The notes under the pieces were generated by a model. It was not told the DNA's origin. It was given only the letters and a program-made list of their open reading frames with translations, and did no database searches. Of a stretch of DNA of 64,000 nucleotides, positions 4 to 27,627 are shown in pieces. Position 1 is the first letter of the stretch; each line of letters opens with the position of its first letter. The position numbers and the translations under genes are program-made. Origin of the DNA: Candidatus Bathyarchaeia archaeon (lineage in GTDB: Archaea > Thermoproteota > Bathyarchaeia > Bathyarchaeales > Bathycorpusculaceae); contig JAVZLM010000005.1 in assembly GCA_038883775.1 (NCBI GenBank), positions 96,001-160,000 of the forward strand. Direction: 5' to 3'.

Positions 4-1911
4 GTGTTGGGGGTTTGGGCTGACCCGATAGCGTGTATGGATGTTTTGGGTTTTGGTCCGTTAGATTTTGATTATGAAAGGCTTCCGCCCGGCGTTAAAC
101 ATCCAAAGTATGTTTTCATGGGGGTTGTTGCTGGCATAGGAAGTTATGGCAATAATATGGGTATTCCAACTGTTAACGGCGCCATATACTTTGATGAAAA
201 CTATGTGGGGAATGTGGTTGTTTATTGTGGATGTGTTGGATTGCTTCCATTGAAAAAGTTTAGGAGAAACGCTAAGCCAAATGACGTTATAGTTTTGGCT
301 GGAGGGAGAACCGGTCGGGATGGCATTCACGGCGTAACCTTTGCATCAGCCGTATTAACAGAAAAGTCAGAAGAGGTTTCGAGACCAGCAGTTCAAATTG
401 CAAATCCTATTGAAGAGGAAAAGCTGAAAAGGGCTATCATTAGAGTTCGAGATTTGGAGTTGGCTTCAGCAATAACGGATTTGGGTGGAGGAGGCTTATC
501 ATCGGCTGTTGGCGAAACAGCAAAGCGGTTTGGTTGCGGCGCTTTTGTTGAGTTGGATAAAGTTCCATTAAAGTATTCTGGTTTGGCGCCTTGGGAAATT
601 TACGTTTCCGAATCCCAAGAGAGGATGCTTTTGGCTGTGCCTCCTGAAAATTTGGAGAAAGTTTTGGAAGTTTTTAAGGGCGAGGATGTGGAGGCTAATG
701 CTATTGGAAAATATACGGCGGATGAAGTTTTAAGAATTTATTATGAAGGCGAAAAAGTTGCTGAAATAGATATTTCATTCCTTTTCGAACCACCCAGGGT
801 CATAAGAACCGCCCATTATAAGCCAAAAATTTTTGAGGAACCATCCTTTCAAGAACCAGGAAACTTGACTGAAACGCTTATGCAACTTTTGTCATCGCCC
901 AACATTGCAAGTAAGGAAAGCGTAATACGCACTTATGACCATGAGGTGAAAGGAAACACTTTGCTTAAGCCCTTGCATGGCGAGTTTGCTGGACCTAACG
1001 ATGCTGCTGTTCTTAAGCCATTGGAGGATTCGTGGAAAGGCTTAGCCATCTCATGTGGGATGAATCCAAATTATGGGAGGATTGATGTTTATTGGATGGC
1101 TGCCTCAGCCATAGACGAGGCTATAAGGAACAATGTGGCTGTTGGCGGCAGAAGAATTGCCTTGCTTGACAATTTCACTTGGGGCGACCCTGAAAAGCCA
1201 GAAATTCTTGGCAGTCTTGTCAGGGCTTGTGAGGCGTGTTATGATTTTGCAACTGCCTTTAAGGCGCCGTTCATTTCTGGAAAGGACAGCCTCTATAATG
1301 AGTCGCCGCTTGGAACGGTTACGCCAACGCTTTTAATAACGGCTTTAGGCATCGTTCCCGATGTTCGTTTGGTTGTTTCTATAGATGTTAAGGATGCTGG
1401 CGACTTAATCTACATTGTTGGGCAAACCTATAAAGAGTTGGGCGGTTCGGAATATTATAGGCTTAAGGGTTTTGTTGGAAATACTGTGCCAAAAGTGCGG
1501 GCAAAACAAGCCAAGAAAACTTTTAGGGCAATTACTAAAGCTGTGGATTTGGGTTTAGTTAAGGCTTGCCATGATTTATCAGAAGGCGGTTTAGGCGTGG
1601 CGGCGGCGGAAATGGCTTTTGCTGGTGGATATGGAATGGAATTACATTTGCAGAAGGTTCCAAGAGAAAATTTGAATCGTGATGATTTCATTTTGTTTTC
1701 TGAGTCTAACAGCCGCTTTTTGGTGGAAGTTTCGCAAAAGGCTAAGGAAGAGTTTGAAGCATTGCTTAGAGGCGTAGTGTATGCTGAAATAGGAAAGGTC
1801 ACAAAAGTTCCAAGGTTATGCGTTTACGGACTAAGCGATAAAGTTGTTGTGGAGGCTTCGTTGAATGATTTGTTGGCAAGTTGGAAAAGAACTCTAAGTA
1901 GCTGGGTTTAG
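4..1911 (+). CDS. purL: Phosphoribosylformylglycinamidine synthase subunit PurL (5' end lies outside the window)
   Basis: DLGGGGL, SESQERM, FISGKDSLYN, HDLSEGG and LFSES motifs; ORF runs from the window edge. Confidence 0.96.
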   Translation: MLGVWADPIACMDVLGFGPLDFDYERLPPGVKHPKYVFMGVVAGIGSYGNNMGIPTVNGAIYFDENYVGNVVVYCGCVGLLPLKKFRRNAKPNDVIVLAGGRTGRDGIHGVTFASAVLTEKSEEVSRPAVQIANPIEEEKLKRAIIRVRDLELASAITDLGGGGLSSAVGETAKRFGCGAFVELDKVPLKYSGLAPWEIYVSESQERMLLAVPPENLEKVLEVFKGEDVEANAIGKYTADEVLRIYYEGEKVAEIDISFLFEPPRVIRTAHYKPKIFEEPSFQEPGNLTETLMQLLSSPNIASKESVIRTYDHEVKGNTLLKPLHGEFAGPNDAAVLKPLEDSWKGLAISCGMNPNYGRIDVYWMAASAIDEAIRNNVAVGGRRIALLDNFTWGDPEKPEILGSLVRACEACYDFATAFKAPFISGKDSLYNESPLGTVTPTLLITALGIVPDVRLVVSIDVKDAGDLIYIVGQTYKELGGSEYYRLKGFVGNTVPKVRAKQAKKTFRAITKAVDLGLVKACHDLSEGGLGVAAAEMAFAGGYGMELHLQKVPRENLNRDDFILFSESNSRFLVEVSQKAKEEFEALLRGVVYAEIGKVTKVPRLCVYGLSDKVVVEASLNDLLASWKRTLSSWV

Positions 1912-1913
1912 AC

Positions 1914-2732
1914 ATGAAGCGGGAAGAGATTAAAGTCTGCGTTTTAAGGGTAGGCGGAACAAACTGCGATGCAGAAACAAAACGGGCTTTTGAAGAGTTA
2001 GGCGTTCAAGCAGAGGTCGTACATGCAAATGAGCTGGTTAAACGCAGAAACCTTTTGGAATATCATGTTCTGGTTTTTCCAGGGGGTTTCTCTTATGGGG
2101 ATTATGTGCGGGCTGGCGCCATATGGGCGAAGTGGATAATGGCAAAATTGGGCAAGGAGCTTAAAGCCTTCGTAGACGAAAACCGCTTAATCCTTGGTAT
2201 TTGTAATGGCTTTCAAGTGCTTGTTGAGGCTGGTTTTCTTCCGGGATTTGATGGAATAAGCCCATATCCAGAAGCGGTTTTGGCAACCAATTTTCCACCA
2301 GGATATAATTGCCGTTGGATTTACATTAAGCACGAAAATAAGGGAAAATGTGCATTTACTTGGAACATTCCACATGAAAAAGTTTTGCGGATTCCCGTTG
2401 CCCATTCAGAGGGCAGATTTATGTTTGCAAAAGAAAAGGAAAAAGAGTTTCTGGAAAGACTTTACGAAAATGACCAGCTGGTCTTTCGCTATTGTGATAA
2501 AAGTGGCGAATATGCTGATGGACGTTTTCCAACAAACCCAAACGGTTCTTTCCATGATATAGCTGGATTATGCAACCTAGAAGGGACTATTTTTGGTTTG
2601 ATGCCGCATCCAGAAAGAGCCTTTTATTGGTGGCAACAGCCAGACTGGACAAGACAAAAGCAAATGCCCCAATACGGCGATGGAAAACTAATTTTCGAAA
2701 GCTTAATTGAATATTTAACGAAGAAGTTTTAA
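1914..2732 (+). CDS. purQ: FGAM synthase glutaminase subunit PurQ
   Basis: GTNCD, PGGFSYGDY, GICNGFQ and MPHPER motifs. Confidence 0.97.
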   Translation: MKREEIKVCVLRVGGTNCDAETKRAFEELGVQAEVVHANELVKRRNLLEYHVLVFPGGFSYGDYVRAGAIWAKWIMAKLGKELKAFVDENRLILGICNGFQVLVEAGFLPGFDGISPYPEAVLATNFPPGYNCRWIYIKHENKGKCAFTWNIPHEKVLRIPVAHSEGRFMFAKEKEKEFLERLYENDQLVFRYCDKSGEYADGRFPTNPNGSFHDIAGLCNLEGTIFGLMPHPERAFYWWQQPDWTRQKQMPQYGDGKLIFESLIEYLTKKF

Positions 2733-14296: not shown

Positions 14297-15158
14297 TTTG
14301 GGAATAATAATAGGAAAAGATACACGCGCCATAGTTCAAGGAATAACAGGAGCCCAAGGAAGCTTTCACACAAAACTCATGCTTGAATATGGAACAAAAA
14401 TAGTGGCGGGAGTAACTCCTGGAAAAGGTGGAACCCAAGTTCATGGAATTCCAGTTTATGATACTGTGAAAGAAGCCCAAGAAAAGCATTCAGCCAACGC
14501 CTCAATAATTTTTGTTCCAGCCCCCTTCGCTGCAGATGCAGCCCTAGAAGCGCTTGAAAATGGGATAAGAACTATTGTGATAATAACGGAGCACATCCCA
14601 ATAAAAGACGCAATAAACCTAATGGCAGCCGCAAAACAACTAAAAGCAACAATAATCGGACCAAACACGCCTGGCATAATCACGCCAGAAGAAAGCAAAC
14701 TTGGAATAATGCCAGCCCACATTTTCAAAAAAGGTAGCATAGGGATGGTTTCAAGAAGCGGAACCCTAACATACGAAATAGCAGCAAGCCTAACAAAGAA
14801 AGGTTTGGGACAATCCACATGCCTAGGCTTGGGAGGAGACCCAATAACGGGTTTAAACTTCATAGATGCATTAAAAATGTTTAAAGAAGACCCTCAAACA
14901 AATGCTGTGGTCTTGATTGGAGAGATAGGCGGAAACCTCGAAGAACTCGCCGCAGAATATATACAAAAAGAAAGATATTCAAAGCCAGTTGTAGCCTTCA
15001 TAGCTGGCCGCTCCGCTCCCCCTGGGAAACGCATGGGGCATGCTGGAGCAATAGTGATGGGAAAAGCTGGAACTGCGGAAAGCAAAATAGATGCCTTCAA
15101 AAAAGCCGGTGTGAAAGTGGCTGAAAAACCAAGCGACGTAGCAGAATTGCTGAAATGA
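14283..15158 (+). CDS. sucD: Succinate--CoA ligase alpha subunit
   Basis: [36 protein letters not shown]. Confidence 0.96.
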
Positions 15159-15261
15159 ATTCGCAGTCGGAAAAACTGTAATGAGGCACTCATTAAAAAT
15201 GCAAAAAGTATATTTTCCAGTATAATATCTCACTTTTAGCAATTCATTAGAGGAAAACAAA

Positions 15262-15423
15262 ATGCCAATAATGGATCCGCTTAAAAAAACTCTCGCCCAG
15301 AAACACAGATTATATATGAAAATATGCAGAGAATGCGGCGCCAGAAATGCTGCAACCGCAGTTAAATGCAGAAAATGCCGAAGCAAAAACCTACGTTGGA
15401 AGAAAAGAGAACTCGTAAAGTAA
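15262..15423 (+). CDS. rpl40e: 50S ribosomal protein L40e (not in the ORF track)
   Basis: Read directly: MPIMDPLKKTLAQKHRLYMKICRECGARNAATAVKCRKCRSKNLRWKKRELVK. Confidence 0.95.
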   Translation: MPIMDPLKKTLAQKHRLYMKICRECGARNAATAVKCRKCRSKNLRWKKRELVK

Positions 15424-15497
15424 TTTTCCTCTAACTTCTCTACTCAGTTGATTGGTTATTGAATGCGAAAATTACATATATGATAAATTCCATATTT

Positions 15498-15503
15498 ATA
15501 AAA
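15498..15503. repeat. Left target-site duplication ATAAAA
   Basis: Same hexamer at 26832-26837, immediately outside each TIR. Confidence 0.75.
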
Positions 15504-15522
15504 TAGGCTGTTCGAAGATTAA
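15504..15522 (+). repeat. Left terminal inverted repeat TAGGCTGTTCGAAGATTAA
   Basis: Exact reverse complement of 26813-26831. Confidence 0.93.
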
Positions 15523-15535
15523 AAACTTTTATATA
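15523..15535 (+). promoter_or_regulatory. Putative inward-facing BRE/TATA for the transposase
   Basis: AAACTTTTATATA just inside the left TIR; a similar motif mirrors it at the right end. Confidence 0.45.
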
Positions 15536-15627
15536 TAACTGTCATATTACTATTATTTGGTTGCCATATGGCTATTATATAATCCCAGAAGGATGGAAAA
15601 CCACCCCTCTGGAGGAGTTGACAACCC

Positions 15628-16632
15628 GTGGTAGCGAGCCTCAACTCCAATATGCCCAGTCATATTCAGAGTGATAAATGTCTTTCGTTAGAGTTTTTGT
15701 TTGACAATGTGGATTTTTTGTTTGTTTGGAAGATTGTTATGAAAAAGTATCATTTGCGTGGGAGACCTCATGACCCTATTGCTATGTTTAAGGCTTTGCT
15801 TTTGAAGGAGATGAGGCAGTTTTCTTCTCGTCGGAAATTGGTGGAGTTTCTTAGGCGTGATTCTTTTTGGTTGAGAAAGTGTGGTTTTGAGCAGCCGCCG
15901 AGCCATAATAGTTTTTCTGATTTTGTTGATAGGGTTGGGGCAGATGCTACTGAGCAGCTTTTCTATCATTTGGTCAATGAAATAAGGAAACTTAAGAAGA
16001 TTGGGGAAATCGTCTCAATAGACTCCACACCTTTGAAAGCATATGCACATTTTTGGAAGAATAGGGAATGCTCTGACCCTGATGCCAAGTGGGGATATAG
16101 TCCTACGGCGGAGTGGGTTTTCGGTTATAAAGTTCACTTAGCCGTTGATGCAGATTCAGAACTTCCTTTGGCATTTATTGTTACACCAGCCAATATTTAT
16201 GATAGTGTAGAATATCCTGAACTTTTAAACAAACTGATTCAGATGGGAATACAGCCAAAAATAGTTCTTGCGGACGCAGGATACGACTCCAAGAAAAACT
16301 ATCTGCTAACTCTAAAATGTGGAGCTACTCCAATCATTGCACTTAACAAGCGAAAAATGAAGAGAAGGAAAACAAGGGATTTCGAACGTATCTTGCCGAT
16401 AAAACGAAAAAGTGAACGTTGGAAGTCTCTTTACAGAAAGAGAAGCAGTGCTGAAAGAGTCATTTCACGGCTGAAAGAAGAGTTAGCTTTGAGAGACGTA
16501 AAAGTGAGAGGATTGAACAATGTGCGAATTCACGTAGCATTCTCTTTAATAGCAATGTTAACCGTAGCCCTCGTTGCCTTAAAAACCGGAAATGGACACA
16601 AAGCGACAAGTGTAAACTCATTTAGATTCTAA
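15628..16632 (+). CDS. DDE transposase, IS4 superfamily (IS5/IS1182-like)
   Basis: IDST (D1), DPDAKWG, FGYKVHL, ADAGYDS (D2), YRKRSSAERVISRLK = Y-2-R-3-E-6-K; N-terminal DUF772-like helical domain; GGAGGAG upstream of GTG. Confidence 0.92.
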   Translation: MVASLNSNMPSHIQSDKCLSLEFLFDNVDFLFVWKIVMKKYHLRGRPHDPIAMFKALLLKEMRQFSSRRKLVEFLRRDSFWLRKCGFEQPPSHNSFSDFVDRVGADATEQLFYHLVNEIRKLKKIGEIVSIDSTPLKAYAHFWKNRECSDPDAKWGYSPTAEWVFGYKVHLAVDADSELPLAFIVTPANIYDSVEYPELLNKLIQMGIQPKIVLADAGYDSKKNYLLTLKCGATPIIALNKRKMKRRKTRDFERILPIKRKSERWKSLYRKRSSAERVISRLKEELALRDVKVRGLNNVRIHVAFSLIAMLTVALVALKTGNGHKATSVNSFRF

Positions 16633-16940
16633 TCGGTATTCATAGTTACTCATGCACGAGGAGCTGCCAGTATTTTACTCATTGTTTGGAGTGTGCAAGA
16701 AAACCAGAGAAAAACATTATTGAAGGTGTGGGCACACATTAGATATTCGATTGGTTAATGCAAAGGCGAAAAGCAATTCGCTTACTTTAAATTCTACTAA
16801 ATATTACTTGTAACAGGTGTTTTATGCTCTATTACACTATCCTATTTTGAGAAAGCTTAAAATCCTTTTTTGAGATAACTTTATAAGCAACTCTGTATCT
16901 TATTTTAGGATGTAAATAAGCATAACAACGTAAGTAGGAG

Positions 16941-17618
16941 GTGAAAATCTTGCCGAAGTTAGGAAATATGGTGTATCCATATATTAAACTTAGCCGTGCT
17001 ATTGAAATCGCCAGACGTATTTGTGAGAGTCCATACAAAGGAGAAATCAGCGTTAGTGGTCTTGCTCAAGAACTTAAAATGTCAGAGAAAGGCGGAGGTT
17101 TCCTTTATCTCGTAGCTTCCTTGCGAGACTATGGATTAGTTGAGGGGACGGGCACTCTTAGAGCGACGGAAATAGCTAAGAAAATCGTAGCAGGAACTCC
17201 TGAAGAAATGAGTAAGAGTCGAGTAGAAAGCTTCCTAAAAGTTGAGCTTTTTAAGAGTCTTAAAGAGAAAATAGGCACAGAGGTTCCAGAAATAGAGCAG
17301 TTTTCTGTCATTTTAAGAGATTTAACGAAAGCAGACCCGCTTAAAGTAAAAAATGTCGCAGAAACAATCCGTAATCTTTATTTAGACGGAGTTCCTTACA
17401 TTAAAGCACTTGAAGAGGCTAAAAAAGAGGAGATTAAAATGACCAAAGAAACTGCAACAGCCCAAGTTGACATATCTACGGCAAAACCGCCTATGCTTGA
17501 AGAACTGAAGTTTGGAGAAAATGTTAGAATATGGCTTCCCAAAGAGAACATCAAAGAGGAATGGAAAAAAGCCAAAAAGATGGTTGATATCTATCTCGGT
17601 ATTGAAGAGGGGAGATAA
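16941..17618 (+). CDS. Hypothetical winged-helix protein (DUF5343-like architecture)
   Basis: wHTH pattern ISVSGLAQELKMS...LVASLRDYGLVEG...LRATEIAK; GGAGGTG overlaps the first GTG, so the start is probably slightly downstream. Confidence 0.6.
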   Translation: MKILPKLGNMVYPYIKLSRAIEIARRICESPYKGEISVSGLAQELKMSEKGGGFLYLVASLRDYGLVEGTGTLRATEIAKKIVAGTPEEMSKSRVESFLKVELFKSLKEKIGTEVPEIEQFSVILRDLTKADPLKVKNVAETIRNLYLDGVPYIKALEEAKKEEIKMTKETATAQVDISTAKPPMLEELKFGENVRIWLPKENIKEEWKKAKKMVDIYLGIEEGR

Positions 17619-17733
17619 TTCCTCTTTTCCCTTAATTTTTTGTAGAGGCATACCTCTTGAAAATTTAAAGCCCATTTTTAGAGTGAACGAATTTTCAATC
17701 TTAGTTTGGATGCAAAAGCAGGAAAAAGAGAGA

Positions 17734-18009
17734 TTAATAAATTTTGAGTTTTCCTTTAATCTGATTAACAGTGTCTCTAATCTCTTTTAGGTCCTTTTGG
17801 ATTTCATCTACATCTTTTGAAACCAGTGATACTTTCATGTATAAAGCACCTGCTCCAAAGGCGACTGAAATCCAAGGCACATTAGCCAAAATATCCTCAA
17901 ATGGAGGGTCTAATCTCAACAACATTTTGATAATCCATATAACGAGTATAGCAAAAGCTATAAGGAAAATCAAATTACTAAGCGATTCTTGCTTTTTTCT
18001 TCTCGCCAT
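17734..18009 (-). CDS. Small two-TM membrane protein with C-terminal coiled coil
   Basis: Two hydrophobic segments, then VSKDVDEIQKDLKEIRDTVNQIKGKL heptads; AGGTGA RBS upstream. Confidence 0.7.
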   Translation of the reverse strand: MARRKKQESLSNLIFLIAFAILVIWIIKMLLRLDPPFEDILANVPWISVAFGAGALYMKVSLVSKDVDEIQKDLKEIRDTVNQIKGKLKIY

Positions 18010-18098
18010 TTTATCACCTAAATCTATTCACTCTATTTTAACAATTAACATTTTCTGAAAATCATAAAATATCTTAACATTGCCTATGAAAAACCAGT

Positions 18099-18359
18099 TC
18101 AAGTATCTCCCAGAGCAATTTCTTCTACAATATCTTGTGGGGATTTTAATTGGTAGGTTCTTTTTCTGGCATCGTTGGGGTCTAAAAATGTTTTAAGCCA
18201 TCCGTGCTTTCTTAAATCAGACAAAATCACACTGACAGTCTTATCGTCTTTCTCTTTTAGCAGACGCCTTGCCTCGTCAAAATCGAAATTTTGATTCTTT
18301 TTCTCTTTCCAAAGCTTGGCATAGCGAAGAAATAACCATTTAGGAAGGGGGTTAGTCAT
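18099..18359 (-). CDS. Small MarR-like winged-helix regulator
   Basis: VSVILSDLRKHGWL...DPNDARKRTYQL wing motif. Confidence 0.75.
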   Translation of the reverse strand: MTNPLPKWLFLRYAKLWKEKKNQNFDFDEARRLLKEKDDKTVSVILSDLRKHGWLKTFLDPNDARKRTYQLKSPQDIVEEIALGDT

Positions 18360-18411
18360 GTTTATCCCAGTCCTTTAGTTATCTGTTAAGCGCTATATTT
18401 ATATACTACGT

Positions 18412-18435
18412 AAGCTATTAGCTTGTATGACAAGC
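18412..18435. promoter_or_regulatory. Overlapping palindromes (putative operator) in a divergent promoter
   Basis: AAGCTA-T-TAGCTT (18412-18424) and GCTTGT-ATG-ACAAGC (18421-18435), just downstream of TTTATATA. Confidence 0.4.
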
Positions 18436-18453
18436 AAACAACAAACCATATGA

Positions 18454-19617
18454 GTGAAATTAATGAGCGTTGAAAGATGTCCTGTTTGCGGAGGCTTTCC
18501 AAGTCGATATTTAATTAATGATGCGAATCTGAAGTTTCTGAAGGATTGCGCAACTAAGGGTCAACTGGATGAAGCCATCTCTGTTGCTCGAATCCTTTGG
18601 AGCAAGTTTCCAGAACTGCGGTTAAACGCTGATTCAAAGATAATTATAGAGGGTGTATCAGCTAATATGCTCAGAGCACTACAAGCCCAAATAAACGAAA
18701 CATTGGAACCAGCAAAAATGTTTGCTGAGAAGCTTCCTGAACTTGTTTACAAGCTACCAGTGGAAATGGATAAGACCATGGATGAGAAGATTGAAGAAAT
18801 GAGAACTTTATTAGCTAAGGAGTTTAAGGAGACACTTAACAACATGGGATTTCCCGAACCCGAGCAACTCAAGTTACTGAGCCAACTTATGCCTGCTGTT
18901 TTACCTCTTCTACAAGAATTATTGATGCTTCAAAAAGTTCCAAGCGAAAAAGGGAAAACTGGAGAATTAGAACTACTAAAGGAATTGAAAGACGTTTTCC
19001 CAGAAGATGACTACAAACATGTTGGCGGTCCAGGAGCAACGGATATCATCGCCACCCCCGTATATGGTGGTTTTCAACTCAGTCAAAGAGTGCTCATCGA
19101 ATCAAAGAAAAACAACAGCGGTTGGAGCAGAGACTTTGTAGATGAAGTCAGAAGGCATATGCAAGCCTATTCAAATCGTTTCGCTATACTCGCTGTAGAA
19201 GTTATGCCAAAAGGAGCAAGAGGTTTTCTCATCGAACATTTCAATGAAGGTGCCATTTTGGTCACAAGTAGAAAAGATGTTTGCATAGCCTATGGAGCTC
19301 TTAGGGCTGTTTTCATCGCTACGTATCCTTTCGAAGTTAGTGCTGGAGACCTTCGGAAACTTTTTGAAGAAAAAAGAATCGAAGAAGCTATAAAAGACGC
19401 TTTGAATTATCAAGAATATCTAAAAAAGATTAAAACAAAATCAGCAAGCATAATTTTAAATGCAAAAAATATTGTTGAGCTTTCTGACGACCTGAACACT
19501 CATTTAAGATTTTGCCTCACCGAACTTCAGAAAAGAATAAGAAATGCAGTTCAAGAAATCGTAGAAGCTCGACCAACTACTAAAGGTGGTTCACCAAACA
19601 TATTAAAAAGGAGTTAA
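18454..19617 (+). CDS. Coiled-coil PD-(D/E)xK nuclease-like protein (DUF2130/RmuC-like)
   Basis: KGKTGELEL...FPED...ATDII...VLIESKK...W pattern; N-terminal CPVC; long helical regions. Confidence 0.7.
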   Translation: MKLMSVERCPVCGGFPSRYLINDANLKFLKDCATKGQLDEAISVARILWSKFPELRLNADSKIIIEGVSANMLRALQAQINETLEPAKMFAEKLPELVYKLPVEMDKTMDEKIEEMRTLLAKEFKETLNNMGFPEPEQLKLLSQLMPAVLPLLQELLMLQKVPSEKGKTGELELLKELKDVFPEDDYKHVGGPGATDIIATPVYGGFQLSQRVLIESKKNNSGWSRDFVDEVRRHMQAYSNRFAILAVEVMPKGARGFLIEHFNEGAILVTSRKDVCIAYGALRAVFIATYPFEVSAGDLRKLFEEKRIEEAIKDALNYQEYLKKIKTKSASIILNAKNIVELSDDLNTHLRFCLTELQKRIRNAVQEIVEARPTTKGGSPNILKRS

Positions 19618-19658
19618 CGTTACCTTAGTAAGTGTAAGAAGGAGGATTTAGAAAAACA

Positions 19659-20903
19659 TTGCTTGAGGCTCCAAGGTCTATGGCTGAGCCGATTCTTGAC
19701 TGGATTCTGAACGGCATACCTGTGCGTGTTGACGTGAAACTTTTTGATGATGTTAGTCTTATTTATGAAGCCCAACTCGCCAAAATGGAGCTATCAAAAT
19801 GGTGGGACGACCTTGAAAGTTTTAGAAAGAGAACAGCATATTTCGAAGAAGTTAACGGGAAAAAGTCCTACCACTATTATATTTCAGACATCAAAGGGAA
19901 GGGGCAGATAGGGAGAACATGTCAATATCTTACTCATTGGTATTATCCTTATAAAGCAAAGTTTCATCCTCAAATGATTAAAGCAATAATTAACTGGATG
20001 GGTCTAAAGAGACCTCAAAAACTGCTTGACCCATTCGTGGGAAGTGGAACTGCTTTGGTTGAAGCCAAAACAATGGGTGTAGACAGCATAGGAATAGACA
20101 TCAATCCCGTTTGCACTTTGATGTCCAGAGTTAAATGCGACCTTCTGGACTTATCTCCAGAGGATTTAAATTCTGTTCCAAGGGAAAAAGCTTTCCATTT
20201 CTTTGACAGAAAAAGAAAAAAACTCGGGCACACAAGCCTTGAAAAATTTGTAGAACATAATACAGAGCAAATTATTCAGCTTTCATCAGATGAAAGAGTG
20301 GCTCGATTCTACGAACTATCCTATCTTTATGCATTATCTGATTTCACCTATGTAAAGAGAGACTTATGGAAAGGGTTTAACGAAAATATTGATGCCGTTA
20401 TTGACACCGTGGAAAGGTTCAGTAAATTGAAAGAGGAGCTGAATCTTGAGTTAGGGAATGTTGATGTAAGGGAAGGAGACGCAAGAAAGCTACCTTTTAG
20501 AGATGAGGAAATAGATGGAATTGTTACTTCCCCACCTTACAGTATTGCTGTCGATTACATTAAACAAGATTTACACGCTTTGGACTATCTAAACATTGAT
20601 ATCGCTCAACTTGTCAATAACATGATAGGGCTCAGAGGAAAGGGCGAAGAAAGAATCGTCAACTACTTCGTGGACATGCTTGCTGCATTTAGAGAGATGT
20701 ATCGAGTTTTAAAGAAAGGAGCATTTTGCGTGATTCTAATAGGAGACGTGACATATAATGGGAAACGGTTACCTATACATAAAAAGTATATTGAATTTGC
20801 TGAAACCGTTGGTTTCTCTCATATTGGAATAATAAAGCGACCTATACTTGGCGGTTACGCCAGACTCAGGTATGAATACATTTTAATGTTCCAAAAATTA
20901 TAG
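19659..20903 (+). CDS. Amino-DNA methyltransferase, probably N4-cytosine
   Basis: HWYYPYKAKFHPQ, SAM motif LDPFVGSGT, catalytic TSPPY, EMYRVLKKG. Confidence 0.9.
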   Translation: MLEAPRSMAEPILDWILNGIPVRVDVKLFDDVSLIYEAQLAKMELSKWWDDLESFRKRTAYFEEVNGKKSYHYYISDIKGKGQIGRTCQYLTHWYYPYKAKFHPQMIKAIINWMGLKRPQKLLDPFVGSGTALVEAKTMGVDSIGIDINPVCTLMSRVKCDLLDLSPEDLNSVPREKAFHFFDRKRKKLGHTSLEKFVEHNTEQIIQLSSDERVARFYELSYLYALSDFTYVKRDLWKGFNENIDAVIDTVERFSKLKEELNLELGNVDVREGDARKLPFRDEEIDGIVTSPPYSIAVDYIKQDLHALDYLNIDIAQLVNNMIGLRGKGEERIVNYFVDMLAAFREMYRVLKKGAFCVILIGDVTYNGKRLPIHKKYIEFAETVGFSHIGIIKRPILGGYARLRYEYILMFQKL

Positions 20904-21974
20904 TCTGCTTAAGCCTTGAACATGAGGATAATAGGAAATAAGTCTTTTTTCTTGTTCTTTCTCGTCCTTCAAAAGATTTCTAACAAATGGTTTTTTTCTT
21001 ACGCAATTGTAGTGATAGTGAAGTTCCTTTTCCTCAGAGGGTTTGAGCACTCCTTTATACGTTATGTAATTGCACTTTCTGAAATTTTTGCATTCTTTTT
21101 TGCAGCTTATTTTTATATCTTCAATCTTCTGAGAGTAGTCAGAAAATCTGTTTATGATTTCGTCGCAATAAAGAATCCATTTTTCGCATATTGGGCAACG
21201 CAACGGAACAGTGTTTGGGACACGAGCTACCACGACCGGAATAGAGGTTCTTGATGAAAAATCGAATATGTGGTCGGGAGTTTTTTGAATGGCTTGCTTC
21301 ACTTCCACTCCAAAAATTCGACCATTTTTGACTATTAGAAAGTCTGGAGCTATAGAATGTGAATCATGAGATAACAATCTTTGATTGAGAAGCATTGGAA
21401 TAACGTATCCAAAATTGTGCCTTATCAGGTAAGCATAAACAATAAGCTCAATGGCTGCGCCAACAGATTTGGGAAGAAGGGAGTCCACAGCATAGTAAAG
21501 CTTCTTTGTTTTCTTATCTTTGTATGACAAGTCCTCCTTGAACTTTTTAGCTTCTTCGTAGATTTTTTCAGCTTCTTCATCTTCGAAAAAGTATGGAATA
21601 TTCTGTTTTTTCATGAAATCCATAAGGCGTTTTCTTATTGAGAAACAAGCATAGGTAGTAACTTGTTCTTGAATTAGAAGCTGGTTAACGACGTATAATA
21701 TCATTTTAAGATACGATTTTCGGTTAGTCTTGTGAAAGCCCCAGATAGAACCTCGAGATACTAAAATATACATAAGGTAGTCGTATAGAATCATTTGTCT
21801 GCCATCTTTACCAACATAAAGCTCTTTAGAGAATTTCTCATAACCTTCAAGTGAATCAATCTTTTTACGCATCATCATGTAATCTTGGTCATGTGTGGCA
21901 AAAAATTGGTCAACAATCAGAAGATGTTTTGCTGTTGATAATGCCCTTTCCAAAACTTTATCCAAAACATTCAC
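20898..21974 (-). CDS. Putative PD-(D/E)xK endonuclease with Cys-rich C-terminus
   Basis: GAAIEL helix, APDFLIVKNGRIFGVEVKQ; CPIC, C, CKKEC...C and HYHYNC ligands. Confidence 0.7.
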   Translation of the reverse strand: MNVLDKVLERALSTAKHLLIVDQFFATHDQDYMMMRKKIDSLEGYEKFSKELYVGKDGRQMILYDYLMYILVSRGSIWGFHKTNRKSYLKMILYVVNQLLIQEQVTTYACFSIRKRLMDFMKKQNIPYFFEDEEAEKIYEEAKKFKEDLSYKDKKTKKLYYAVDSLLPKSVGAAIELIVYAYLIRHNFGYVIPMLLNQRLLSHDSHSIAPDFLIVKNGRIFGVEVKQAIQKTPDHIFDFSSRTSIPVVVARVPNTVPLRCPICEKWILYCDEIINRFSDYSQKIEDIKISCKKECKNFRKCNYITYKGVLKPSEEKELHYHYNCVRKKPFVRNLLKDEKEQEKRLISYYPHVQGLSRL

Positions 21975-22004
21975 CTACAAAGAATTTGTTTGCGGGATAG
22001 TTGC

Positions 22005-22769
22005 CTAAAATAATTTCGTTTGTTGTCCTTTGTCTCTTCTCCATTCATCACTGGCTTTTTTGATTATTCGCAAAATTGCTTCGTAGGTTCCAACTCCTCC
22101 AAGTTTATCCCACATTTCCTTTCCGATTAGCACCTCTTTTTCCATATCCATAATTCGTTTCGTAAAACTCCACCTATACAAATGCCGTTCAACGTAAGGA
22201 TTATATGTCAAACCAAGAAATGCTTGAGCTCTTTTTCCTTCATGAGCTACCAAAAACAATAGCATCTTCCTTTTCGATTCAGCACATTGGTCAAGATTAG
22301 GTAAAGGAGCCTTAATTTCCATGAACAAAGGTCCATCTTCATGGTCACCTACATACAAATCAGCTATTATCCTAACAGAAGTTTTTTCAGAGCTGGAAAC
22401 TGACATTATTTCCCTCATTTCCTCTATGTGATTTGGTCTTCGCATTCCGCTACGAAGGCTATTCACTATAGTGTCAACCATTGTGACTTTTGCACCGTCA
22501 AGGTCAGTTAAAATTTCATATTCCCTGTGAACATCTGAATATCGTCCCTTCGCAACAATCTCCGCCACTGCTGGCAGAAAACGAGTCCCCACAGTTGTCT
22601 CAACTGAACTTACCAAATCTCCATGAAGTATAGCTTCATCGGTCAAAAACGCACTATGAAAAGGTTTAGCCTCCTTAACTTCTTCCAGAGAACGCCGAGC
22701 CTTAATAGAAAGGTCCTCAAGAACTCTCTTAACTAAATCTGAAATTTCCTTTTCCGTTTTCTCGTCCAA
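22005..22769 (-). CDS. Type II restriction endonuclease, TdeIII/MjaII-like
   Basis: ADLYV...FMEIKAPLPNLDQC, YNPY, IGKEMWDKLGG-GTYE are characteristic of the TdeIII family. Confidence 0.8.
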   Translation of the reverse strand: MDEKTEKEISDLVKRVLEDLSIKARRSLEEVKEAKPFHSAFLTDEAILHGDLVSSVETTVGTRFLPAVAEIVAKGRYSDVHREYEILTDLDGAKVTMVDTIVNSLRSGMRRPNHIEEMREIMSVSSSEKTSVRIIADLYVGDHEDGPLFMEIKAPLPNLDQCAESKRKMLLFLVAHEGKRAQAFLGLTYNPYVERHLYRWSFTKRIMDMEKEVLIGKEMWDKLGGVGTYEAILRIIKKASDEWRRDKGQQTKLF

Positions 22770-22894
22770 GTATTTATCACTAATCTAACAAATCGTCTGA
22801 CCAGATTTATAAGAACTATCCCTCGGAATAATAACAACGCTAACTTAGAAAGTTTTATTTGCTGAGTGAAAAAGATTTAGACCTTGTGATTTAT

Positions 22895-23329
22895 ATGACG
22901 TTAAGAATAACTACAAGAAATAGAAACAAGCTTTCACAAGAGTTGCATGATTGGGTTATTGAAATGACTGTGGAGCGTCTTTATGGTAAATTTAGAGAGG
23001 CAGGCAGAAAAATATACACAAATCCAAATCAACAGAAGAACTTTGCTGTAAATGGTTTCTATCCCGACATTGTGGTCTAAAATCCGGAGACGGAAAAAGT
23101 TACATTTATCGATGAAATAGAGACGGAAGTGGGCGAAATCGAGAAAAATCAATGGGAAGATTTCGCCAAACTTGGAATAGGTTTTTCTGTAACAGTTCCA
23201 TTGAATGACGTAGAAAATGCCAAGAAAATTATTAGAGACAACAAAATTAGAGTAACCTCTCTTTGGTCTTATAAAACTGATTACCCGGCAACTAAAAATA
23301 TAACTTTCAAAGAAGAAACTCTTTCATAA
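22895..23329 (+). pseudogene. Small PD-(D/E)xK-fold nuclease interrupted by an in-frame TAA (23078-23080)
   Basis: Both track ORFs are in one frame; read-through gives FYPDIVV*NPETEKVTFIDEIETEV. Confidence 0.75.
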
Positions 23330-23356
23330 ATGGTCACAAAAACAAACAAAAAATGG

Positions 23357-23557
23357 TTATTTCGCTTCTTTCTGAGACCATTTTGCTTTAACTGCAAGCA
23401 ACTCTTGTATATACTCTTCTCTTTTCTTTGCGTATTCTTTGATGGCGTTTGCGAAAGCTTTCCCGATGGTATCTTCTAACCCCAACTTAGTTAATTGTCG
23501 AGCTAAATTGTAAGCCTCTTCTGGAACCGTTACGGATTTATATCCATTTAGAGGCAT
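23357..23557 (-). CDS. Small ribbon-helix-helix / antitoxin-like DNA-binding protein
   Basis: YKSVTVPEEAYNLA beta-alpha pattern; AGGTGG RBS. Confidence 0.65.
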   Translation of the reverse strand: MPLNGYKSVTVPEEAYNLARQLTKLGLEDTIGKAFANAIKEYAKKREEYIQELLAVKAKWSQKEAK

Positions 23558-23644
23558 CTAAACCACCTTTGCTATAAATATGTTGAAAAAGTAAATATAT
23601 GTTATTACCACAAAACCTTAAATCAGTATGGTAAAAATGGTAAG

Positions 23645-23905
23645 GTGCATATCATGGAAACTGAAGGTTCATCAGACTTTATCATAACAAATGGAAAATA
23701 CGCAGAAGGTAATAGAATCCTTGTAATCAATCCAAAGACGAACAAAGGGTTGTATGCAATGCTCAGAAACCTCGAGTTTCTAAGCGAGATTCAACGACCC
23801 GGCGATAAAATAAATGTGCACTGCAGAAGTGGCGTCACCTCAAAGGGCGAATTTGTATTCTGTGACGTTTTCCTAACCAGAGAATTCGCTAACTCTGAGT
23901 TCTGA
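23645..23905 (+). CDS. Hypothetical beta-rich protein
   Basis: ORF divergent from the RHH gene; AGGTG before the ATG at 23654. Confidence 0.55.
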   Translation: MHIMETEGSSDFIITNGKYAEGNRILVINPKTNKGLYAMLRNLEFLSEIQRPGDKINVHCRSGVTSKGEFVFCDVFLTREFANSEF

Positions 23906-23968
23906 TTGAGCGATAGTTGACCGAGTTTTCTATTTGCTCGTCCCTGAATGGCTTTCTAAGCACAAAAT

Positions 23969-24559
23969 TTAGATTGAAATGATGTGAATATCCTCTGGTA
24001 ACTTTGTTATATCGATGAGTGGAGAAACGGTCATTATTGCTTGGATTTTAAGGCGTTTTAGTTCTCTAAAAAGGGAAGGGACCATATTTTTGATAAGCCT
24101 CTCAAAAGGGTCGTCAGCTATCAAGCATTGGTAGCCTCTTGTAAGGTTTTGTAAGTTTCCCGTTATGCTTATGGAATCTTGTTTTGGAAACAGTCTTAGC
24201 GTTATTGTTCCATTGTTAAATACTCTGTTCGTGAAATATCGGTGTCTTATACCGAAAGCAAACAGAATAGCTCTTACTATGGTAGATTTGCCACTTCCGC
24301 ATGTGCCATGAATCAAATTTATCGAGTTTCTGCAAAAATATGCTTCAAAATTATCAAATGGTCCGACTTTAGTCAATTTCAGTGATTCAATTTGGAAAGG
24401 CAAGAAGTATGTTTCTCCGTAAAGGGAGTCTTCACAGCCTACTTCAGCCAACAATTTTCGCAAATGTTCTTTAGCTGTTCTTGGTCTTTTTATCTCTAAA
24501 GCTTGTCTTAGTTCCTTCTTTTGAGGTCTGGAAATACTTGTGTTTTCTGTTTTCTTCAT
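23969..24559 (-). CDS. Miniature or degenerate SMC/OLD-type ABC ATPase
   Basis: IESLKLTKVGPF, Walker A GTCGSGKST, Walker B-like LIADDPF; no coiled coil or signature motif. Confidence 0.65.
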   Translation of the reverse strand: MKKTENTSISRPQKKELRQALEIKRPRTAKEHLRKLLAEVGCEDSLYGETYFLPFQIESLKLTKVGPFDNFEAYFCRNSINLIHGTCGSGKSTIVRAILFAFGIRHRYFTNRVFNNGTITLRLFPKQDSISITGNLQNLTRGYQCLIADDPFERLIKNMVPSLFRELKRLKIQAIMTVSPLIDITKLPEDIHIISI

Positions 24560-24793
24560 GGAATAAAATAAATTTGACCATGTAAATAAGTTCTTCTTAA
24601 GGTTTGATACTATTCACTTCTATGGTTTTTTCTATATTGCCTTGGACATTAGAGTTTAGAAGGAAAAGAGAAAATCTTAGAAAAGAATGTGGCGTTGTCA
24701 TACTAAATGCTCAGATGAATTATTTCAGTTTGGCGAGAGAGTATGGAGATAAATTTTTTAACTATTGATGAGCAAGATTAGTGTGGTAGAAGT

Positions 24794-25498
24794 ATGGAGT
24801 TAATTCTTAAAGAAGCAGCAAAGGCTTTTGGAAAGGAAGTAGCAAAAGAAGTAACGCCAATAATAGTGAAGAAATTTTTAGGGAAAACACAAAAACTATC
24901 TGTAAAGTTCGGGTTAGTGTTGACTTTTTATGAATATCCATTAATGGATGATGCAATAGCCCTTATAGAAAATTGTATACACAAGTTCAAATGTGGCGTA
25001 GGTATGTTGAAGATTGATGACGTAACATTTGATTATTACATTAGCTTTGAACTTGAAGAGTTTGTGAGCCCCGATATTGACATTCTAATTCAAGAAGAGC
25101 CTGAATACGCAATCTCTGACCAATTTATTTCCTTGCTTGAGATTCTGCTCTCTCCTCATCTAAAGAAAGAAGTCCATGACAAGAAAGAAGTTGAAAATGT
25201 CTTCTTTTCCGGGTTTAAGCTGTTAGATGGAATTACAAAGTGTTTAGAAAATGAAGAAATCGCTGCGACAGTATTAAAAATTCGTTCAGCAGTAAAATTG
25301 CTTGGTATTGAATCTGAGTTAAATTTTGCACAGAATATTTTTACGGAGTTGTCTAAAAAAATTGCGAAATTAAAATTGCCTTACAGCCCATACGTCTCTT
25401 TTTCGCCAATTTCAAAAATAGAAGGACAAATTGGGCAAGTTATCGTATCACTCAAAGATGCGGGGGTGTTAATGGCTATAATAGATGCGATAACATGA
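24794..25498 (+). CDS. Hypothetical protein
   Basis: 234-aa ORF in an AT-rich region, 1 bp from the next gene. Confidence 0.7.
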   Translation: MELILKEAAKAFGKEVAKEVTPIIVKKFLGKTQKLSVKFGLVLTFYEYPLMDDAIALIENCIHKFKCGVGMLKIDDVTFDYYISFELEEFVSPDIDILIQEEPEYAISDQFISLLEILLSPHLKKEVHDKKEVENVFFSGFKLLDGITKCLENEEIAATVLKIRSAVKLLGIESELNFAQNIFTELSKKIAKLKLPYSPYVSFSPISKIEGQIGQVIVSLKDAGVLMAIIDAIT

Positions 25499-25499
25499 G

Positions 25500-26267
25500 G
25501 TGAAGATTTTGGTATTTTGGACGTGTAGAGTTTTTAAAATAAATCCCAAATTTGATAGTATTGTAAAGGATGTTATTTTGAAAACGGGAAGTTACCAATA
25601 TGGTAAAGTTGAAAACAAAAATCTTTTCTTATACATTGACAGAATTCAGGAGACTTTTGGTGGATGGGCTAAATTAATTGAGACTTACATCGATAGTCCT
25701 CGCAGGGTATTTAATAGAGAAGAAGGTTATGTTGCCATAAAAGAAACAGTTCCATTTAACATTTGTCTATTTGAAAAATCAAGCATCCCAAATTTCTTGG
25801 CTATTTTTGGTTCAAGTTACAATATTCCAGTTCTGACCTATGCTCTTAAGGTGATAATTTCTGAAAGGGGACGGTCTAAAGGTCAGATTCCAGACTCATT
25901 AATTGTGTTCTCTCCTTTATTTAAACTGAATTTCAGGTTGAAAGGAAAAGAAAATGAATTAAGTAAATATCTCTCTAACATCAGAGAAATTAGCGTTAGA
26001 GAAATTAAAGACATGTATGTCCATGCAGCGAGCCTCAAAGGACTATTATTGGAATTAAGTGAAGAATATCAAAAATATGTCCGTGACAGTGAGATATCTG
26101 GAAGAATAAATTATTTCGGCGTAAACGTTGAAGGCAGAGTTATGATGTTGTCTTCTGAAGGAAAAATATGGACGAGACAGGGAAAAAATAATGTCGAACC
26201 GGAAATTGTTAAAATGATTCTCGAGGTCTTAGATAAATGTGATGCAATTCATGTTGTAGAGCAATGA
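25500..26267 (+). CDS. Hypothetical alpha/beta protein
   Basis: 255-aa ORF, GAGGTG at the start region, coupled to the upstream gene. Confidence 0.7.
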   Translation: MKILVFWTCRVFKINPKFDSIVKDVILKTGSYQYGKVENKNLFLYIDRIQETFGGWAKLIETYIDSPRRVFNREEGYVAIKETVPFNICLFEKSSIPNFLAIFGSSYNIPVLTYALKVIISERGRSKGQIPDSLIVFSPLFKLNFRLKGKENELSKYLSNIREISVREIKDMYVHAASLKGLLLELSEEYQKYVRDSEISGRINYFGVNVEGRVMMLSSEGKIWTRQGKNNVEPEIVKMILEVLDKCDAIHVVEQ

Positions 26268-26304
26268 AAATTGTGCTCATGTTTTAACGGTTGTTAGTGA
26301 GAGT

Positions 26305-26514
26305 TTGATAAGAATGTTTGAGCATGCTGAAAAGGTTGTAAAAAAATTGACGAAAGAAAACATGGAACATTTGAGACGCCAGATAGATGAGTGCTTGAAG
26401 ATGGCAATCAAGTTTGATGAAACGGGTAAAGCAAAATATTTTGTTAAGATGAAGAATTCTTGCCAAACCTTTCTCCAGATGCTAAATGAGTTGGAGAAGA
26501 AAGCTGATTCTTAG
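26305..26514 (+). CDS. Small helical hypothetical protein
   Basis: 69-aa ORF converging on the AbrB-like gene with overlapping stops. Confidence 0.5.
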   Translation: MIRMFEHAEKVVKKLTKENMEHLRRQIDECLKMAIKFDETGKAKYFVKMKNSCQTFLQMLNELEKKADS

Positions 26515-26753
26515 CCTTCCACGATTTTTATTTTCTTTCCTCTAATCACAAAGCCATCCGGCGACACTTTGATTTTCGGCTCTTCTACCGACGTTATTAT
26601 CATTAGCTTGCGATATGGGTCAATAGTAATTTTAACTGTATCTCCAGCCTTAAACGGATAATTAGAATCCTGAACCATAACAGACGGAATAACCAAATAC
26701 TGAGTATGTGCATTCTTACTTTGCACAATCTTAACTTCAGCCTCTAAAACCAT
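26511..26753 (-). CDS. AbrB/MazE-like swapped-hairpin DNA-binding protein
   Basis: TQYLVIPSVMVQDSNYPFKAGDTVKITID pattern; GGTGG RBS. Confidence 0.7.
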   Translation of the reverse strand: MVLEAEVKIVQSKNAHTQYLVIPSVMVQDSNYPFKAGDTVKITIDPYRKLMIITSVEEPKIKVSPDGFVIRGKKIKIVEG

Positions 26754-26812
26754 ACAACAACCACCAACAGACTCCCAAATAACAACTGTATGAAAACTAT
26801 ATAAAAACTTTA

Positions 26813-26831
26813 TTAATCTTCGAACAGCCTA
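26813..26831 (-). repeat. Right terminal inverted repeat
   Basis: TTAATCTTCGAACAGCCTA = reverse complement of 15504-15522. Confidence 0.93.
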
Positions 26832-26837
26832 ATAAAA
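26832..26837. repeat. Right target-site duplication ATAAAA
   Basis: Matches 15498-15503. Confidence 0.75.
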
Positions 26838-26867
26838 TTATAAAATGCAGGTTTTGAGGTGCAAGCA

Positions 26868-26921
26868 GTGGCTTGTAAGACTAAGAAGAAAACCAAGAAA
26901 AAAGCGAAGAAAACGAAATAA
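26868..26921 (+). CDS. Possible 17-aa Lys-rich micropeptide MACKTKKKTKKKAKKTK
   Basis: GAGGTG at 26856-26861, 6 nt before GTG; TTATAAAA upstream; T-rich tract downstream. Confidence 0.35.
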   Translation: MACKTKKKTKKKAKKTK

Positions 26922-26991
26922 AAAATCACATTAATCTCCTCATTTCCCCATTTTTATTTGAAAGAAAAACGTGCGCTCAACTCTCTTATAT

Positions 26992-27627
26992 TTAAAGAAT
27001 TTTTGATAAAGTTTCAAGGTTGAAAATGGTGTTTGCACAGCCATTCTTTATCAGAGGAACGGCTTGACCAGCAATTCCCAAATAGTTTAATGCCTCACCG
27101 CTCAATCTTATTTCTTCGCCACAAGCAACTCCAACAACCCCATCATAATGATTATTTTTCAAAATTTTCTGAACACAAGAACCACCAGGCAATATGTAAA
27201 CGTCATAACCTTTTTTCTCGGCGAGAACCACTGCTCTGTTAATTAGGCAGTCTGGGGAACAATGCGCACAACTGTAAGAGGGAATATGGGGGTCAAAAGT
27301 TGCCTTACAACGATTATCCATATATTTCCTAGAACAATGTGGCAGAAAAAGAGCCCGTTTTCTCGTCTGCTCAAACCGTTTCCTTTCTAAAAGGTTTCTG
27401 GCTTGCATGTCTATAAGGTCTTGAAGAAGAAAAACAGCATCAGACAAGTTGAGACCCGTAATCTCCTGAATCCTAAACTTTTTAATGATATCCTGCATTG
27501 TTTTGCTAACCTTTTTATGAACACCCTTTTGAAATCCAACTCTAGCAACTTCGGTAAAGAAGAAACGAGGAACCCTTGAAAGGTCAAAGGTAAACTTGTA
27601 TGGCATAAAGTATTCTATAAATAACAA
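26992..27627 (-). CDS. DUF116-family Cys-rich protein
   Basis: LFLPHC, CAHCSPDC, YILPGGS, GVAC, GC motifs; start probably the Met at 27606. Confidence 0.85.
   Translation of the reverse strand: MLFIEYFMPYKFTFDLSRVPRFFFTEVARVGFQKGVHKKVSKTMQDIIKKFRIQEITGLNLSDAVFLLQDLIDMQARNLLERKRFEQTRKRALFLPHCSRKYMDNRCKATFDPHIPSYSCAHCSPDCLINRAVVLAEKKGYDVYILPGGSCVQKILKNNHYDGVVGVACGEEIRLSGEALNYLGIAGQAVPLIKNGCANTIFNLETLSKIL

Follow-up and report, generated by a model that had tools for sequence, protein, structure and literature searches.

Ends and Flanks of the Element

We analyzed 64,000 nucleotides (nt) of a Bathyarchaeia contig (JAVZLM010000005.1), referred to here as the window, in which an 11,328-bp element with terminal inverted repeats and a single transposase gene occupies positions 15504–26831. 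It lies between sucD and rpl40e at the left and a DUF116 gene at the right, in a genome of 1.69 Mb distributed over 28 contigs and 91% complete. A preliminary description of this DNA had assigned it to an archaeon, in agreement with the presence of rpl40e and with the sucD protein, which shows 93–94% identity to proteins listed under the names Bathyarchaeota, Bathyarchaeia, or Bathycorpusculaceae. The G+C content of the element is 36.7%, compared with 41.0–41.7% in the flanks.

The 19-nt sequence TAGGCTGTTCGAAGATTAA stands at the left end on the forward strand (15504–15522) and at the right end on the reverse strand (26813–26831), matching at 19/19 positions at both. With up to three mismatches allowed, the window contains just these two matches, against 0.03 expected, and none of 100 shuffled sequences contained two or more. 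A repeat finder extended the ungapped inverted repeat to 57 nt with 79% complementarity, defining a left end at 15504–15560 (forward strand), with related sequence beyond the exact repeat, and a right end at 26775–26831 (reverse strand). Of nine left ends compared, eight show at most one difference over the first 36 nt. Directly outside both ends lies ATAAAA (15498–15503 and 26832–26837), a flank match with a chance of about 6e-4 at the local base composition. Both the perfect 19-bp repeats and the 6-bp target-site duplication noted in the preliminary description were confirmed, the latter by the flank comparison and by a contig joint with a single ATAAAA (see below). An inward-facing TTTTATATA is present in both ends; judged from the sequence, these motifs may be archaeal TATA-like boxes for the transposase gene at the left and for orf80, a small gene at the right. 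Rfam and tRNA scans of the element region found nothing. Elsewhere in the genome, a lone 19-mer at G000:C2:99474–99492 has three mismatches to the end sequence and no partner; with about 0.35 such matches expected by our estimate, it is compatible with chance.

Transposase Gene and Its Relatives

The transposase gene (15628–16632, forward strand) encodes a DDE transposase of 334 residues resembling those of the IS5/IS1182 insertion sequences (IS). It matches DDE_Tnp_1 (PF01609, 1.5e-31) and, at residues 46–114, DUF772 (PF05598, 1.6e-13), and D132, D216, and E276 are invariant in all 33 aligned homologues. The YREK signature of such enzymes is spaced as Y-(2)-R-(3)-E-(6)-K, which Y269, R272, E276, and K283 fit. 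The Pfam matches, the invariant triad, and this spacing bear out an intact-looking DDE transposase with a YREK motif. The nearest NCBIfam models are IS1182 (172.7 bits, cut-off 270) and IS5_4 (101.7 bits, cut-off 140), and all 12 NCBIfam transposase models that were matched score below their curated cut-offs.

Database searches returned 231 homologues of the transposase, the best being 93, 86, and 80% identical. At E ≤ 1e-50, homologues are encoded in eight of 401 genomes sampled from the class, this one included; the closest of the others reaches 55% identity. A scan of the genome contig collection with the transposase found no relative, and a scan of viral contigs with the end pattern gave no matches.

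A distant relative in the genome G166 is a plain IS of 1,210 bp, present in three copies (L050:1479–2689, L052:1300–2508, and L053:1284–2493) that encode transposases 38–39% identical to that of the window. Its end, TAGGCTGTTTAGAAATTAA, agrees with the window end at 16 of 19 positions. Since the transposase is related and the ends are so similar, the ends belong to this transposase lineage, and the short format of the G166 element implies that the lineage began as an ordinary short IS. Unlike the window element, the G166 IS contains the transposase gene only, occurs in several copies, and lacks orf80 and cargo. All three copies have CGCGCG(C) outside their TAGG...CCTA ends. Either these letters extend the ends palindromically, or the IS has a strictly CG-rich target, in which it would differ from the cargo-bearing clade with its AT-rich targets.

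A Single Transposase for the Whole Unit

The preliminary description had reported neither a second IS copy nor an internal right end behind the transposase gene, and both statements stood up to closer searches. Neither the element DNA nor the end sequence has a further copy in the genome, and the transposase gene is the only gene in the whole genome to match PF01609. IS4/IS5-type elements usually move cargo as composite pairs, so a decayed composite transposon, with its right-hand IS eroded to the outer end, has to be considered. The two IS copies flanking the cargo that define a composite are, however, not found in this genome with its single transposase gene, and the interior of the element contains no recognizable transposase remnant: a tblastn search at E ≤ 10 gave only an 11-residue match (E = 3.9). 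There is also no inner copy of either 36-nt end at up to 11 mismatches, and pattern and repeat searches detected no internal right end or second IS. At the right end, an intact and conserved orf80, not IS debris, adjoins the repeat in all four complete elements known to us (see below), and the same architecture recurs in elements with transposases diverged to 69–77% identity. We therefore regard a decayed composite as extremely improbable.

No open reading frame (ORF) of the element matched an integrase or resolvase family, as the preliminary description had also stated, though most of the 16 ORFs besides the transposase gene match no Pfam family and a novel recombinase may be among them. Machinery of the Tn3 or Tn7 type gave no Pfam, NCBIfam, or PADLOC match, with ORFs of 69 and 92 residues only partly scanned. 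The element does not have the 1–2-kb, transposition-only format of IS5/IS1182 elements: its 11,328 bp hold 16 further ORFs, and its relatives measure 4.6–10.2 kb.

Empty Insertion Sites

The distance between sucD and the DUF116 gene is 11.8 kb in the window but 248–501 bp in three genomes of the same genus (G001, G003, and G004) and in one of the same family (G012). The site reads CCATACTTATAAATGCAG in G001 and CCATATTTAAAAACGCAA in G003; in the window, CCATATTTATAAAA precedes the element and ATAAAATTATAAAATGCAGG follows it. Relatives that lack the transposase but keep the cargo at this locus had been named in the preliminary description as evidence against a transposon, and none of the four related genomes does so.

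We also aligned Logan contigs of other hot-spring metagenome runs on positions 14800–27600; the four runs used consist of contigs only, and their depths are low. One contig of run X2 (depth 3.4, shorter side 94 letters) joins 15497 to 26832, skipping 11,334 bases. It reproduces the predicted empty site downstream of rpl40e, ...CATATTT-ATAAAA-TTATAAAATGCAG..., with one ATAAAA. One contig each in X2 and X3 joins 15493 to 26836 (11,342 bases skipped) and represents an allele with a single TTATAAAA. A joint of 15428 to 26989 in run X1, possibly the source sample, corresponds to a relative without the spacer. The predicted empty site is thus borne out by the X2 contig joint together with the four related genomes, from which the element is absent as a unit.

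Other contigs carry the right part of the element next to different DNA. A 2,830-nt X2 contig matches 24438–26837 with 12 differences and continues with 430 nt of unlike sequence, and in an X3 contig the match to the window ends at 26831, exactly at the right end, and is followed by unlike sequence. Judged from these alignments, the contigs point to near-identical copies at other sites.

The element-free target of the window lineage (15490–15503 joined to 26832–26850) contains TTATAAAA twice in tandem, and G001, G003, and one X2/X3 contig allele contain it once, with a single TTATAAA(A) in G001 and G003. The tandem could have arisen by slippage in the AT-rich spacer or could be the footprint of an excised earlier insertion with an 8-bp duplication. 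About 30 nt to the right of the insertion lies a lysine-rich ORF of 17 codons (26868–26921, forward strand) with a GTG start after GAGGTG, conserved in G001 and G003. The element is inserted in a TATA-like TTTATAAAA just upstream of it, which, from the sequence, may affect its expression.

Complete Relatives at Other Sites

We collected relatives from 11 metagenome loci and by scanning species genomes with the end pattern, and obtained three further complete elements. Two have both ends at 19/19: a 10,244-bp element at L032:1002–11245, flanked by the duplication TTAAGA, and a 6,305-bp Bathyarchaeia element at CAZHWZ010000003.1:61442–67746 (L041/L042), flanked by TAATAA. The third, 4,582 bp long and also from Bathyarchaeia (L043:2408–6989), has one end at 18/19, flanks that share AAAGA (5 bp), and a truncated transposase gene with three stop codons. 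The other copies at different sites, with variable cargo, that the preliminary description had proposed to look for therefore exist. Between the same flanks, the L043 element is absent from five of seven relatives' loci, the other two loci falling short of the far flank; it is present or absent as a unit, like the window element. The left flank of the CAZHWZ010000003.1 element is conserved in one of 20 relatives, and there in part only. The seven metagenome loci with a left end (L030–L036) each have a left flank of their own, unlike that of the window.

The relatives also bear on the length of the target duplication. The single TTATAAA(A) in G001 and G003 had suggested an 8-bp duplication with six extra bases at the right end; we rejected this because the L032 and CAZHWZ010000003.1 elements have clean 6-bp duplications and because an X2 contig contains the exact tandem empty site. 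A "TA" duplication, with the repeat starting at GG, was rejected on the same evidence.

In an all-against-all ORF comparison, the four complete elements proved to have just two genes in common, the transposase gene at the left and orf80 at the right (26511–26753, reverse strand, read inward from the right end). The 80-residue orf80 protein, putatively AbrB/SpoVT/MazE-like, is 66–93% identical across the four elements and has 133 homologues in the representative library. It has no Pfam match itself, and 12 of 50 aligned homologues match PF04014 (MazE/SpoVT-AbrB), the best at 1.2e-5. Its structure model has a predicted local distance difference test (pLDDT) score of 87.5, and the top Foldseek rows, AbrB-type proteins that include archaeal ones (5itj, 2l66, MazE, and VapB), are weak (E ≥ 0.11, template modeling (TM) score by query 0.39–0.49). 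From sequence and model, orf80 is probably a DNA-binding regulator or an end-binding accessory factor.

In every locus, the stop codon of the transposase gene is the exact point at which homology between the elements breaks off, to return in blocks farther on. It follows that the cargo sits between two convergent core genes, and the variable part begins at the first base after this stop codon.

Several incomplete relatives were also found. The locus L035:139–2124 retains a left end and 31 nt joined to a position matching window 15763, with the start of the transposase gene lost, and its downstream gene is the same as in L033; this deletion derivative answers the suggestion of the preliminary description to look for derivatives like miniature inverted-repeat transposable elements. 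The nearly identical loci L039:6129–10294 and L040:1951–6116 encode only the C-terminal third of the transposase (66% identity) and an inverted DUF2130 homologue, together with a 19-mer at four mismatches to the right end, and resemble what a related element might leave behind after rearrangement. In L031, a gene for a ParA/MinD-type ATPase (1663–2460, reverse strand; AAA_31, 3e-43) adjoins the transposase gene; it is of the partition type and not a defence gene. The Bacteroidia contig L044 matched a degenerate end pattern and was rejected as a tandem repeat.

Cargo Genes of the Window Element

Besides the transposase, the element encodes 16 non-overlapping ORFs of at least 60 residues, close to the roughly 15 cargo genes counted in the preliminary description. 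In runs X2 and X3, contig depth is low over the first stretch of variable cargo (16633–18112); its ORFs at 16941–17618 (225 residues) and 17771–18058 (95 residues) have no Pfam, PADLOC, or NCBIfam match. An 86-residue putative helix-turn-helix protein (18099–18359, reverse strand; weak MsvR-like match, 2.1e-6), with homologues in L030, L032, L033, and L040, is divergent from the gene of a 387-residue DUF2130 protein (18454–19617, forward strand; PF09903, 2.9e-8). The DUF2130 gene is common to L030, L032, and L033 at 83–88% nt identity. Its family is tabulated in the PD-(D/E)XK nuclease superfamily (PMC3424549), and the protein had no sequence match in the Protein Data Bank (PDB) at E ≤ 1.

A type II DNA methyltransferase of 414 residues follows (19659–20903, forward strand; N6_N4_Mtase 1.6e-15, PADLOC MTase_II 6.8e-29). 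The TdeIII-type type II restriction endonuclease of 254 residues (22005–22769, reverse strand; PF09520 2.3e-49, PADLOC REase_II 1.2e-26) is separated from it by a 358-residue protein without a family (20898–21974, reverse strand), whose homologues adjoin the methyltransferase in L030 and L033 and for which Atlas gave nuclease matches of 0.84–0.86, weak and usable as leads only.

The remaining genes are less clear. Four small ORFs (73, 66, 66, and 86 residues; 22859–23905) have no family match, two of them having homologues in L032. The 196-residue product of 23969–24559 (reverse strand) is an N-terminal fragment of an SMC/ABC-type ATPase that includes the P-loop only (AAA_23, 9e-8); its best PADLOC matches, LmuB and PtuA, align near the N-terminus of profiles of 300–600 positions, and its L032 homologue has only 64 residues. 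Two abutting genes for 234 and 255 residues (24794–26267, forward strand) are shared with L032 at 86% nt identity. The model of the 255-residue protein (25500–26267, forward strand; pLDDT 80.1) came closest in VIA-align to RdgC of E. coli (Z 8.3) and RexA of phage lambda (Z 7.5), scores within the range common for unmatched models and hence a lead only. It had no Foldseek match at E ≤ 0.001, and Atlas linked it at 0.96–0.97 to a family of unnamed bacterial and archaeal proteins. The 234-residue partner is unlikely to be a RexB-type membrane protein, as no long hydrophobic stretch was obvious by eye. Together, the two genes may belong to a two-gene system not yet described. Finally, a 69-residue ORF with a homologue in L032 (26305–26514, forward strand) overlaps the orf80 stop codon.

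The preliminary description had spoken of a whole defence island. The type II methyltransferase/TdeIII pair was confirmed, whereas the ATPase proved to be a fragment and no other defence gene was confirmed. The term is overstated because only the restriction-modification pair is established, the DUF2130 and RdgC/RexA-like proteins being leads only.

Cargo across the Family

The complete relatives carry different cargo. In L032, it includes an N6_N4 methyltransferase, a ParE-like toxin, and a 668-residue protein without a family; in CAZHWZ010000003.1, a BsaWI-like endonuclease, an N6_N4 methyltransferase, and EVE, NYN, and winged-helix proteins; and in L043, a SacI endonuclease with a Dam-type methyltransferase. 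L030 and L033 carry the methyltransferase module of the window together with other genes. All six elements with at least 4 kb of interior in hand encode a methyltransferase, and four of the six a recognized restriction endonuclease. By their sequences, the members carry differing type II restriction-modification systems, and the term "restriction-modification shuttle" fits the family.

Such a mosaic could also arise if only the core IS, consisting of the transposase gene, orf80, and the ends, transposed, with the cargo gained in place, or swapped between resident elements by homologous recombination through their conserved end modules, and the 11.3-kb unit never having moved. The mosaic cargo, with the breaks in homology described above, does indicate frequent exchange, and the distant relative in G166 is a plain 1.2-kb IS. 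However, no short form was seen: in none of the loci that continue beyond the transposase gene does the 19-mer, at up to five mismatches, follow directly as a right end. The cargo shared between different sites is, moreover, about as diverged as the transposase gene. Between the window and L032, the transposase gene is 88.6% identical at the nt level and the cargo blocks 88.3, 86.3, and 73.5%; the corresponding values are 89.1 and 85.9% for L033 (4.7 kb of cargo) and 89.8 and 83.3% for L030 (3.9 kb). We conclude that the common ancestor already carried this cargo and moved afterwards. The X2 contig with only 12 differences over 2,400 nt has, in addition, a different right flank. We consider movement of the core alone very unlikely.

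Interpretation as a Unit Transposon

In the window element, inverted repeats and a target duplication enclose a unit of one transposase gene with passenger genes, an arrangement found again, with 6-bp duplications, in L032 and CAZHWZ010000003.1. We consider it very probable that it is an autonomous single-transposase unit transposon in a Bathyarchaeia chromosome, similar to the "transporter IS" elements. This was also the reading of the preliminary description, and it is backed by the ends, the empty sites, the three complete relatives, and the lack of a second IS.

The preliminary description took the perfect ends as a sign of recent activity. The perfect ends could instead reflect a young insertion of a real transposon that is by now a fixed, inactive fossil. 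The single copy per genome, the lack of circle or excision intermediates in the run contigs, which cannot show rare forms, and the decay of the L043 element, with its truncated transposase gene, three stop codons, and 18/19 end, would all suit a fossil. The window element itself, however, has an intact transposase with its catalytic residues, ends matching at 19/19, and a duplication matching at 6/6; empty-site alleles coexist in related populations, and near-identical copies with other flanks occur in X2 and X3. On these sequence comparisons the transposon was probably active recently, and we find a fossil very unlikely.

Several observations weigh against the interpretation as an active unit transposon. 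Because only one copy is present, the genome itself holds no evidence of jumping. The exact empty-site joint is one contig of low depth (3.4), and circle or "go back" joints did not appear among the run contigs, data that are unable to show rare forms. The L043 duplication matches over 5 bp only, and the sequences of L030 and L033 in hand stop before the right end. As the transposase scores below every NCBIfam cut-off, its mechanism cannot be read from a characterized family, and we infer the roles of orf80 and the TATA-like motifs. Shared cargo could, furthermore, spread by homologous recombination between resident elements through their end modules.

Under the unit-transposon interpretation, the transposase would bind the conserved 19–36-bp ends, pair them over 11.3 kb, cut out or copy the element, and insert it into AT-rich DNA by means of staggered cuts 6 bp apart. 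The orf80 protein would probably act at the ends or as a DNA-binding regulator, and the TATA-like motifs inside the ends would probably drive both core genes. The restriction-modification cargo would probably defend the host and penalize loss of the element, which we propose as the reason why every sufficiently sequenced relative has a methyltransferase. Cargo is exchanged among the members of this small family, and the two end modules stay.

Relation to Known Mobile Elements and Significance

Cargo-carrying DNA transposons are central to bacterial gene flow. The category of transporter IS (tIS) in ISfinder/TnCentral comprises IS-like elements in which passenger genes lie with a single transposase gene between inverted repeats and within a target duplication (bioRxiv 10.1101/2021.05.26.445724). 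Here the layout is the same; the differences are the IS5/IS1182-like transposase, the 3–10 kb of cargo (about 16 genes), the archaeal host, and orf80 as a second core gene. Two bacterial elements likewise have one IS1182-type transposase and an inverted repeat beyond passenger DNA. In TnSha1 of staphylococci (IS1272, IS1182 family), the passenger sh-fabI is mobilized, with stem-loop targets and no target duplication (PMC4923244), and the IS1182-like TnCO-1 of Thermoanaerobacter kivui occurs as an 86-kb extrachromosomal circle, its mechanism being described as unclear (PMC12056078). In the family of the window element, by contrast, the 6-bp duplications are clean, the targets are AT-rich, the cargo includes restriction-modification genes, and a putatively AbrB-like accessory gene is present.

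Furuta, Abe and Kobayashi (2010) described type II restriction-modification units with inverted repeats, an 8-bp duplication, and an empty site in a relative (PMC2853133). Those units are bacterial, without a transposase, and thought to be non-autonomous, no archaeal case having survived the filter (PMC2853133), whereas the window element is autonomous, by our interpretation, and archaeal. Tn7-like transposons carry diverse defence cargo and have been reported in archaea (PMC8649781; bioRxiv 10.1101/2025.07.27.667033, a 2025 preprint). They use the TnsA/B/C/D machinery and specific attachment sites, in contrast to the one small DDE transposase and the loose AT-rich targets seen here.

According to Krupovic et al. 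(2019), passenger-gene transposons had not been detected in archaea (PMC6563490). The only archaeal additions since then in the open-access literature, in the texts available to us, are Tn7-like elements and the tRNA-targeting "aloposons"; the latter, with giant genes at tRNA sites, are unrelated and were rejected as a precedent. Searches of open-access text on Bathyarchaea transposons and on IS1182 elements with passengers yielded no description of the present family. The single-transposase cargo transposon is a known category, and the family itself is new within it. We tentatively suggest, with confidence just short of even, that this is the first described archaeal family of autonomous single-DDE-transposase cargo transposons, in which an IS5/IS1182-like IS of Bathyarchaeia, an AbrB-like gene, and a fixed cargo bay shuttle restriction-modification and other defence genes.

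If this is true, a transposase that handles at least 10 kb between 19-bp ends would be a candidate tool for DNA delivery into archaea. With its 19–36-bp end, 334-residue transposase, and 80-residue partner, the family would also serve as a test set for the end-pairing distance of IS5/IS1182-type elements. A single small DDE transposase moving 3–10 kb would represent a much simpler archaeal route of cargo transfer, and the family would tie the biology of IS elements to the way restriction-modification systems spread within a class of uncultured archaea.

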